Part shown: one piece after another, positions 16,530-18,659 of the stretch
Layout of the letters: each line of letters starts with the position of its first letter
Numbering within the stretch: the stretch's first letter is position 1
Sequence record: MH717096.1
Length of the DNA stretch: 38,829 bases
From: Escherichia phage N7
Direction: 5' to 3' (one strand)
Notes under the pieces: model-generated
The model's input: the letters and a program-made list of their open reading frames with translations, nothing else
What the model was told of the DNA's origin: nothing
The model's database searches: none
Translations under genes and position numbers: made by a program

Positions 16530-18659
16530 ATGACAGACATTACAGCCAATGTGATCGTATCGATGCCTTCGCAACTCTTCACTATGGCGCGTTCTTTTAA
16601 AGCCGTAACTAATGGCAAAATTTATATCGGTAAAATTGACACGGACCCGGTAAATCCTGAAAACCAGATTCAGGTTTATGTGGAAAACGAAGACGGCTCT
16701 CACGTTCCTGTTTCGCAACCAATCATCATTAACGCTGCTGGTTACCCTGTATATAACGGACAGATTGCCAAGTTCGTAACTGTGCAAGGCCATTCTATGG
16801 CTGTTTATGATGCATACGGTGCGCAGCAGTTCTATTTTCCGAATGTGCTAAAGTATGATCCAGATCAGTTTAAGGGCAATCTCCTGAGCGAAGATCACTC
16901 ACTTGGCGACTCTCTAGTCATGCATAACCCACAGTTTGTCGATAGCACATCGACCATTCTCTCAAAAAAGCTAACTATCGACCTGAGGACGCTTACAGAC
17001 TACGGGTTTGCTGAGGGAAACACCGGTGCTCAGAACAAAGCAGCATTCCAGGCTGCCATTGACGATGCAGTCATGGCGACGGAAATTGTAATACCACCAG
17101 GGGCGTATATCTGCGACCCCGGTGTTACTATCGGGAATTCAAATATCATCCGCATCCGCGGTGCTGGAATGTATCAAACGGTGATTTTTACCGCTGGCGA
17201 GGCGGACCCATTAATCACCCAGGCGTCAGGTAAAATAGTAACGTTCTGTGAGTTTATTGATTTTGGCTTGAATGGTAACTATAAAGCAAACACTCTTCTT
17301 AACCTGACAGAAGCTAACCACATAAAAATAATCAGGGTGCAGTTTGCCAACACCATTGGCAATGCGCTTGTCCTTAATGGATATTCGAATGATATCGAAG
17401 GCTGCCGATTTCTGGAGAACAATGGCAACGCGGTTAATTTGGGTGGCGTGTTAAACAACACGAACTTCGTGAACAATAGGGTGTATGGTAACAACGTGGG
17501 CGGTTTGATTCTCCAACCGGCTTATGACGAGGGGGGGTTAAGCGTCAGAGTTCAGGGGAATGACTTTGAACTAAATAAATCATTCGGGGTAATGTCTTAC
17601 GGCGTTAAAGGATTAAACATTATTGATAATTACTGGGAGCGCAACGGGGAAAATGGAATTAATTACCCTGATATTGGAGGTGTTACAGTTAAAGCTGATT
17701 TGCATTTAATTGCTAACAGTTATTCGATAACCCCAAACGCCGCCAAAGCCAATGATGTAGTTCGTGTTTGCGGTAACCAGCAAACGGCATTTGGGTATGG
17801 AAACTCTCTTGGCAATCAGGATGGGTTCATATTCACTAACTACGCAAAAAATCTCTGCGTCGAACATAATGAAATGCTCGACCCATCTAAAAATAACGCC
17901 CTGATAAGCGTATACAACAGCCATTACGTAACTATCGTCACTGAGGAAGTGCATATCCGAGGAAACAGCCGTAATGACGTTGGTTTTATCGGGACTCCGC
18001 AGGATGTTTATGACCATATCAGATGGGGGCATCTGATTCGCAACTTTAACGCACCTAGACCAATAAATCTGCTAGAAAATAGCATGTTGTCATGGTTCCG
18101 ATTTGCTGGGACCACAGGTTCTTTAGTGAAAACAACAAATTATTTTAACAACAACTATTCATTTTCCGTAACGGACGGGGACTCTGTATGGGTAACTACT
18201 ATTGACCTTTCGATACGTCCAGAGTTAAAAGATAAATATATTTGGTTCGGTGCTTGGGTAAACGACCAGGGTGCTTCCGCAAAATTACTTTTTGGCATCA
18301 ACAGCAAATACTCTGACGACCTAACTGTAGTAGCCGGGAGTGGCTCATGGAAATTTGTAAGTTGCTGCACTTACGTAGGGCCAGGGGATACCGTTATCAG
18401 GGCTAGTATCCAAAAAATAGGCTCAGGAGCCGATGTTCTTATAAACTCCCCCGTAATAGCGGAACTAGGTGTCTCCTATACGGACGTACAGTCGAAACCT
18501 ACCGTATTCCGTGCGCCATCAGTGCCAACTACCGGGACGTGGAATGTTGGGGAGCGTGTTATCAATAGCGCACCTGCTTCAGGACAACCAAAGGCATGGA
18601 CATGCAATATTGCAGGTGGTCCCGGGATTTACAGCTTCCTTTCTGAGGGGAATTATTAA
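16530..18659 (+). CDS. tailspike protein (P22-type head-binding N-domain, distinct receptor-binding domain)
   Basis: N-terminal ~115 aa [26 protein letters not shown]...YDPDQF match recalled P22/HK620 tailspike head-binding domain; the rest is G/N-rich beta-helix-like repeats; 709 aa. Confidence 0.85.

Follow-up and report, generated by a model that had tools for sequence, protein, structure and literature searches.

The best-described relatives of the protein considered here are P22 gp9, Sf6 gp14, and HK620 gp9, the structures of which have been solved, which include endorhamnosidases and an endo-N-acetylglucosaminidase, and which share a plan of head-binding domain, neck, beta-helix, and C-terminal domain. 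In the case of the O26 serogroup of E. coli, Pas et al. (2023) defined an “O26 RBP subtype” of receptor-binding proteins (RBPs), which comprises those of Lederbergvirus RM10386 and Uetakevirus E2865 and which is delimited by an amino acid identity of at least 30%, with the receptor domain covered to at least 60% (PMC10408124). Gil et al. (2025) then mounted residues 120–707 of the RM10386 spike on the tailspike protein (TSP) TSP3 of CBA120 and obtained an O26-specific luciferase reporter signal (PMC12737597). Here, we compare with these systems the tailspike gene of Escherichia phage N7 (sequence record MH717096.1), the whole 38,829 nucleotides (nt) of which are referred to below as the window. 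This gene, which is the equivalent of P22 gene 9, is an intact open reading frame (ORF) that starts with ATG and encodes 709 residues (16530–18659, plus strand, stop codon included), and PHROG 8846 covers residues 19–709 of its product (E 1e-281).

Column-by-column alignment reveals two opposite shifts in DNA identity at one place in the gene. Over gene nt 201–512, the identity to the tailspike gene of P22-like prophages of O26:H11 E. coli that produce Shiga toxin (STEC) is 100%, but mismatches start abruptly past nt 512, after which the sliding identity lies at 30–70%. The reverse is found for the spike gene of a phiV10-like (Uetakevirus) contig from IMG/VR, IMGVR_UViG_2778261504_000023 (L008), which is 84–100% identical to the window (mean ~94%) between nt ~497 and a point 48 nt past the stop codon. 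This homology reaches ~18707 and takes in a 10-bp hairpin (18665–18688) that lies immediately 3' of the stop codon and that, with its T-run, scores as a minus-strand terminator; the hairpin thus travels with the receptor module. Because the O26-STEC identity ends at ~nt 512 and the L008 identity starts at ~nt 497, the crossover is placed within the ~20 nt of GGTGCTCAGAACAAAGCAGC (17026–17045, plus strand; gene nt ~497–516; codons 166–172, G166–Q172), a sequence common to all the lineages and situated inside a family-conserved cap motif. On its 5' side, the gene is identical to the O26-STEC P22-like spike and, on its 3' side, it follows the phiV10-like, T7-like, and Ackermannviridae lineage (see below). 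Comparison of the DNA thus shows the gene to be a recombinant, in which the first ~512 nt are of the O26-STEC prophage type and the remainder, along with the downstream hairpin, derives from another allele of this receptor family that has diverged; that the tailspike is a mosaic is close to certain. An earlier note on this DNA, based on the letters alone, had proposed a horizontal exchange of the receptor part, and this is now borne out at the DNA level both by the opposite shifts at codons ~165–171 and by the occurrence of the module on several backbones. The same note had put the boundary at residue 115, which stands as an older, family-wide boundary, whereas the newest junction maps to codons ~165–171. 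A second crossover at nt 2023–2082, suggested by identity to the O26-STEC gene, was considered and rejected: over that stretch and past the stop codon, the similarity of the phiV10-like gene is no lower, and a single donor lineage for nt ~497–2178 is therefore simpler.

Among 5,426 complete genomes of E. coli, only those of FDN-24 and FDN-9 contain the whole gene (99.3% nt identity; 707/709 residues). The FDN-24 copy, which is annotated “phage tailspike protein”, differs from that of the window by ~15 nt and only two amino acid changes. In about a hundred O26-type genomes of the same set, the gene is matched at its two ends alone. The O26-STEC spike (708 residues, e.g., in 2013C-3277) is homologous to the window spike along its full length and is of near-equal size; the identity varies by region and is ~98% over residues 1–180, ~52% over residues 181–660, 23–30% over residues 451–510, and ~85% at the end. 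Similarly, the spike of the RM10386 Lederbergvirus prophage (I3U_RS19900; the equivalent in O26:H11 STEC is WP_032345496) resembles that of the window in gene position, domain order, and length (707/708 versus 709 residues). Over the first ~170 residues, the two are the same or almost the same, and the C-terminal motif and the acidic residues E347, E370, and D390 (see below) are common to both, but the identity over residues 181–660 is again ~52%, the central part of the window spike being from another lineage. Another difference lies in the gene downstream, which encodes an acyltransferase in the O26-STEC prophages and is replaced in the window by a broken gtr cassette. The nearest characterized relative is 65% identical overall, very unevenly, so uniform full-length identity to a single characterized tailspike, which would have spoken against a mosaic, was not found.

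The head-binding (virion-attachment) domain corresponds to residues 1–113 (16530–16868, plus strand) and matches the full length of the Pfam profile Head_binding PF09008 (E 2.8e-66), which is the N-terminal domain expected of a P22-like tailspike. Residues 1–115 had been described as nearly identical to their P22 and HK620 counterparts; this is true for HK620 (110/115, 95.7%) and also for Sf6 (104/115, 90.4%) but is an overstatement for P22 (85/115, 73.9%), the range for the three characterized spikes thus being 74–96%. A search of the PDB sequences gave only N-terminal matches (Sf6 gp14 and P22 gp9, E 1e-44 to 1e-66), which end at about residue 115. Likewise, a megablast of the gene against 50,697 phage records found 31 records that match nt 1–345 alone, at 80–95%. 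Beyond residue 115, forced alignments give an identity of ~20% to HK620 and ~25% to Sf6. A tblastn search of those phage records with residues 116–709 gave one 57-residue C-terminal match and nothing more, and a BFVD search with the receptor part gave remote folds only, at 19% identity or less. To judge from the phage records and BFVD, no cultured phage carries this receptor module.

The organization of the receptor part was examined with Pfam and with an AlphaFold2 monomer model built on an alignment of 63 homologues. The predicted local distance difference test (pLDDT) score exceeds 90 over residues 150–709; the N-terminal domain is poorly modelled, its fold being known from the sequence matches. 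Residues 114–183 (16869–17078, plus strand) form a linker or neck followed by an N-terminal cap, with model helices at 111–127, 144–151, and 166–179; this segment contains the family-conserved motif, and residues 151–180 are 76–96% identical to all family members. An hhalign comparison with the Sf6 spike pairs residues 105–334 with Sf6 residues 105–354 (97% probability), which indicates a remote common ancestry for the neck and the first helix rungs. Then comes a right-handed parallel beta-helix of ~14 rungs (residues 184–515; 17079–18074, plus strand), the receptor fold that goes with a P22-like tailspike and presumably the body that binds and cleaves the O-antigen. It is rich in asparagine (13.9%) and glycine (11.1%), and its residues 258–388 match Pfam Beta_helix PF13229 (32.6 bits versus a curated cut-off of 25.9). 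In the model, the helix extends from ~184 to ~515, a beta-sandwich from ~520 to 650, and a small terminal domain from 660 to 709. The C-terminal beta-sandwich (residues 516–654; 18075–18491, plus strand) has model strands at 523–645 with pLDDT >90. The last ~50 residues (655–709; 18492–18656, plus strand) carry the conserved motif PTTGTW.VGERV.N..P.SGQPK.W.C...G.PG...SEGN, for which Pfam has no model of its own. About 45 residues of it (~664–709; 18519–18656) recur, at 50–71% identity, as the C-termini of many spike-like proteins that are unrelated in other respects and the helices of which belong to another Pfam family, PF12708; this motif looks like a portable terminal module. The prediction that, after the head-binding domain, the protein diverges into an asparagine- and glycine-rich beta-helix and a C-terminal domain is thus confirmed by Pfam, composition, and model alike, and the structure prediction and domain-wise homology search of residues 116–709 that had been advised gave both this beta-helix/beta-sandwich model and relatives in the O26 RBP subtype. 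A spike of the endosialidase type with a C-terminal chaperone, as in CUS-3 or K1F, was rejected since the Pfam search detected neither a sialidase beta-propeller nor a Peptidase_S74 chaperone and since the match to CUS-3 is confined to the N-terminal 341 nt.

The receptor module is not restricted to P22-like virions. The wider family contains 767 cluster representatives at E <= 1e-3, of which 24 are at E <= 1e-30. In the phiV10-like contig L008, both the flanks and the N-terminal anchor of the spike (875 residues) are 95% identical to phiV10, and the module, from about residue 166 to the end, is 90% identical to that of the window (95% over residues 181–660). The difference lies in a 278-residue N-terminal anchor with a PF18668 element, which fits a virion of the phiV10/epsilon15 type, and in the lysis genes that follow the spike gene in L008, where the window has gtr and int. 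In a T7-like contig (L007), which encodes a T7 tail fibre N-domain recognized by Pfam, a T7-type terminase, and ocr, the module is part of a tail-fibre gene (P0002) at 88% amino acid identity over residues 116–709. In an Ackermannviridae-type contig (L004; Logan SRR16327202; 151 kb), it occurs at 86% identity over the same residues in P0004 (842 residues; 8001–10529), one of four consecutive spike genes in a baseplate and spike region that is 97.7% identical to that of the Ackermannviridae phage YX22. Two other contigs, L005 and L006, were grouped with the observation of this Ackermannviridae-type spike. Windows of 30 residues within residues 151–660 of the window spike are 76–100% identical to P0002 and P0004, the N-terminal adaptors of which are unrelated (a T7 tail-fibre N-domain and an Ackermannviridae TSP anchor) and the last ~20 residues of which diverge. 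The backbones of L007 and L004 are virulent, whereas the window phage is temperate. One receptor module is therefore mounted on four unrelated virion types.

As to the receptor itself, the specificity of this module had been taken to be unknown, but it is not wholly so. Residues 116–709 are 58–59% identical, with 100% coverage, to P22-like spikes of 707/708 residues from O26 strains and 54% identical to Uetakevirus spikes of 873 residues, several of the relatives being labelled O26 or O26:H11. Both comparisons place the module well inside the O26 RBP subtype, and one member of this subtype has been validated experimentally: the RM10386 spike sequence printed in the supplement of Gil et al. matches the spike type of O26:H11 STEC 2013C-3277 (L002). 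The two genomes with the allele point in the same direction. FDN-24 contains a full O26 cluster (rmlBDAC, wzx, wzy, GT2, fnlA, wbjC, wecB-like, GT4, and wbuC), and the wzx–wzy region of FDN-24 and FDN-9 is 100% identical to that of O26:H11 STEC such as H19 and DEC9B. Since O26 wzx–wzy occurs in 109 of the 5,426 complete E. coli genomes (2%), this is the background against which to read the finding that FDN-24 and FDN-9, the sole complete E. coli genomes with the window allele, are both O26 by genotype. On the basis of subtype membership, the validated relative, and the O26 genotype of these two strains, O26 is the most likely target, although for this allele it is no more than probable. The proposal that the receptor module determines host range is very probably correct.

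The candidate active site lies on the beta-helix. Near-invariant polar residues (E347, N349, Y368, E370, N372, G376, and D390) cluster on three successive rungs, and E347 (17568–17570), E370 (17637–17639), and D390 (17697–17699), which delimit a segment at 17568–17699 (plus strand), are kept in 89–100% of 63 homologues that are 21–86% identical to the query; all the family-conserved residues are present in the window spike. From this conservation, the near-invariant polar residues are the best active-site candidates, with E347, E370, and D390 as the putative catalytic ones. The equation of E347 with the catalytic E366 of Sf6 was set aside as an extrapolated lead, the hhalign comparison having ended at residue 334, short of the catalytic region. 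From the fold and the conserved acidic residues, we infer a glycan-cleaving activity of the spike, as had been suggested, and hydrolytic cleavage is likelier than mere binding. According to Manca et al. (1996), the O26 repeat reportedly consists of L-Rha, L-FucNAc, and D-GlcNAc without uronic acid. In agreement with this composition, the O26 cluster of FDN-24 makes dTDP-L-Rha and UDP-L-FucNAc and is devoid of uronic-acid genes. Because the O26 repeat has no uronic acid, a spike that cleaves it must be a hydrolase rather than a lyase.

These data are consistent with a functional P22-like mosaic tailspike that probably targets O26, a reading to which we give a probability of roughly 0.68. By analogy with P22, Sf6, and HK620, six trimers would dock on the tail hub via the N-terminal domain. 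The beta-helix would then bind the O-antigen chain and hydrolyse it. The likeliest substrate would be the O26 repeat of E. coli (L-Rha, L-FucNAc, and D-GlcNAc), with E347, E370, and D390 as the candidate catalytic residues. Such cleavage would let the virion move down to the outer membrane, the site at which ejection of its DNA would be triggered, again as in P22, Sf6, and HK620.

Several observations weigh against this reading, and some of them raise the question of whether the swapped-in allele recognizes a different glycan, be it that of another serogroup, an O-acetylated or glucosylated O26, or a capsule, in which case the exchange would have changed the host range. The window spike differs from the validated O26 spike at 41–48% of the receptor-domain positions; the ~52% identity over residues 181–660 includes a stretch of 60 residues (451–510) at only 23–30%. 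The family also extends beyond O26, with related spikes in Citrobacter and in a bacterium of the Budviciaceae. The acyltransferase gene beside the O26-STEC prophage spike and the decayed gtr genes of the window imply that O-antigen modification is in play near these genes. The O26 host link amounts to one clone (the two chicken isolates, FDN-24 and FDN-9) and to a prophage that is a remnant, while the exact 709-residue protein is not on record in the public assemblies index. Nevertheless, the sole complete genomes with the allele are of O26 genotype, the subtype threshold is exceeded by a wide margin (PMC10408124), and the polar and acidic cluster is common to both alleles. Sequence divergence of this order is compatible with a shared target in other spikes: those of P22, Det7, and 9NA have the same O-antigen specificity despite 36–50% identity. 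A different glycan is thus the less likely alternative, albeit one with a real claim. A narrower version of it is that the O26-STEC-type and window-type alleles are functionally non-equivalent, with the window type recognizing or cleaving a modified O26, for example an O-acetylated one, or cutting another linkage. The O-acetylated form would presumably be due to the acyltransferase that adjoins the other allele in the STEC prophages. This version is rather doubtful but, if it were true, the in-frame replacement of the cassette would answer an earlier move in an arms race over seroconversion.

The receptor module might also bind the glycan without cleaving it or, instead of being a glycosidase, have esterase or deacetylase activity. 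The CBA120 chimera with the related O26 module from RM10386 adsorbed and delivered DNA but made no plaques, which also counts against the reading favoured above (PMC12737597). Two limits of the structural work bear on that favoured reading: the spike was modelled as a monomer, in which the trimer is not represented, and none of the solved structures is closer than 17% across the receptor part, which makes the catalytic assignment a guess. Against a module that does not cleave, E347, E370, and D390 hardly vary, on successive rungs, among the 63 homologues. The P22, Sf6, and HK620 spikes have catalytic centres with acidic residues in a like arrangement. To our knowledge, the P22-like beta-helix spikes characterized to date are all endoglycosidases, and the Pfam search found no SGNH or esterase domain; the non-cleaving or deacetylating module is therefore an improbable explanation. 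It is far less probable still that the gene is a decaying prophage relic from which no working spike is made. The heavily deleted state of the FDN-24 prophage and the broken gtr cassette next to the gene would fit with decay, but the ORF is intact and preceded by a ribosome-binding site, merely two amino acid changes are found among the ~15 nt differences from the FDN-24 copy, the window has the full P22-like gene set, and the family-conserved residues are all kept. Finally, the fact that the two alleles are homologous end to end (709 versus 708 residues) could be taken to mean that the gene arose from an ancestral P22-like tailspike by divergence at its present site, with no exchange at all. 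The breakpoints contradict this: the O26-STEC DNA identity falls from 100% to ~60% within ~20 nt, the phiV10-like, T7-like, and Ackermannviridae genes climb at the same point from ~40% to 85–100% identity, and the L008 homology goes on past the stop codon through the hairpin. Divergence in place hence has almost no chance of being right.

The favoured reading, that of a functional mosaic spike with O26 as its probable target, has some practical value, as O26 ranks first among the STEC serogroups other than O157 and RBPs specific for it are wanted for tailocins, for biocontrol, and for phages used in detection (PMC12737597). The modularity of tailspikes, their exchange between phage genera, and the O26 subtype have all been published before, and the present gene is a textbook-quality case of such modularity rather than a new principle. 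What is new is, firstly, a second, diverged O26-subtype allele on a Lederbergvirus, with the exact natural junctions, and, secondly, the O26-subtype module on T7-like and Ackermannviridae backbones, on which no O26 spike had been described according to Gil et al. (PMC12737597). The gene supplies a second, well-diverged O26-type allele in an apparently complete temperate phage, and the close copies on virulent T7-like and Ackermannviridae backbones constitute natural templates for engineering. The natural junctions, at codons ~165–171 and at the hairpin past the stop codon, are sites where the exchange of the module has already succeeded and could be used for the same purpose.

As a whole, the window represents a P22-like (Lederbergvirus) genome that is complete and whose genes, among them those for morphogenesis, lysis, replication, and integration, stand in vegetative order. 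Its terminase, portal, coat, and injection genes are 95–97% identical to those of HK620, Sf6, and vB_EcoP-611R6. An immI region (14931–16429) with Mnt-like and Arc-like ORFs and Ant is followed by the tailspike gene and then, on the opposite strand, by the decayed gtr cassette and the integrase gene, after which come the lambdoid early region and the lysis genes. The tailspike gene is therefore the last late gene, which follows mnt–arc–ant and precedes the O-antigen modification genes, attP, and int; this is the position expected of a P22-like tailspike gene, with the same layout in HK620 and Sf6 and at the site of P22 gene 9. A GGAG ribosome-binding site read from the sequence (16518–16521, plus strand) lies 8 nt 5' of the ATG. 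Between ant and the tailspike gene is a terminator-like hairpin with a T-run (16447–16466, plus strand; 8-bp stem, 5 GC pairs, TTTTTAT tail), in a position equal to that of tANT in the annotated HK620 genome.

Immediately upstream of the spike, phage HZ41 (OM022251) is 100% identical to the window over 11187–16529 (5.3 kb), but its identity over spike nt 1–345 (16530–16874) is 94.8%, with no relation thereafter. On the strength of this drop, the left border of a very recent exchange is placed at or near the start codon of the spike. The idea that HZ41 might be an isogenic partner that differs in the spike alone was dropped: outside this segment, the genome is a lambdoid mosaic of the usual kind, for which HZ41 does not rank with the best matches.

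The gtr (O-antigen glucosylation) cassette downstream is broken (18697–19212 and 19349–19423, minus strand), with gtrB and the 5' part of a gtrC-type gene missing. A 171-residue ORF in this remnant shares 42% identity with the C-terminal portion of GtrI, the type-specific glucosyltransferase of phage SfI, and, upstream of it, gtrA is reduced to its first 25 codons (MLKLFAKYTSIGVLNTLIHCICFSL). E. coli FDN-24 has the same gtr remnant. The FDN-24 copy of the tailspike gene (L001; NZ_CP158147.1, 2500766–2513729) belongs to a heavily deleted P22-like prophage that lies between sbcB and dacD, ~20 kb from the O26 O-antigen cluster; the antitermination gene adjoins a DNA-transfer gene that is truncated, and no head or tail genes are left, but the spike gene is intact. 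In O26:H11 STEC 2013C-3277, the spike is followed by an acyltransferase-family gene (L002, 6198–7340) in the position of the O-antigen acetylase of Sf6, which suggests that the O26-STEC P22-like prophages modify the O26 antigen.

Lastly, minus-strand ORFs of 106, 170, and 115 residues are present at 13690–14931, a stretch flanked by the final injection gene and the mnt-like gene. Cargo for superinfection exclusion or defence is often found at this position in P22-like phages; O26-STEC prophages have homologous “hypothetical protein” genes at this site.

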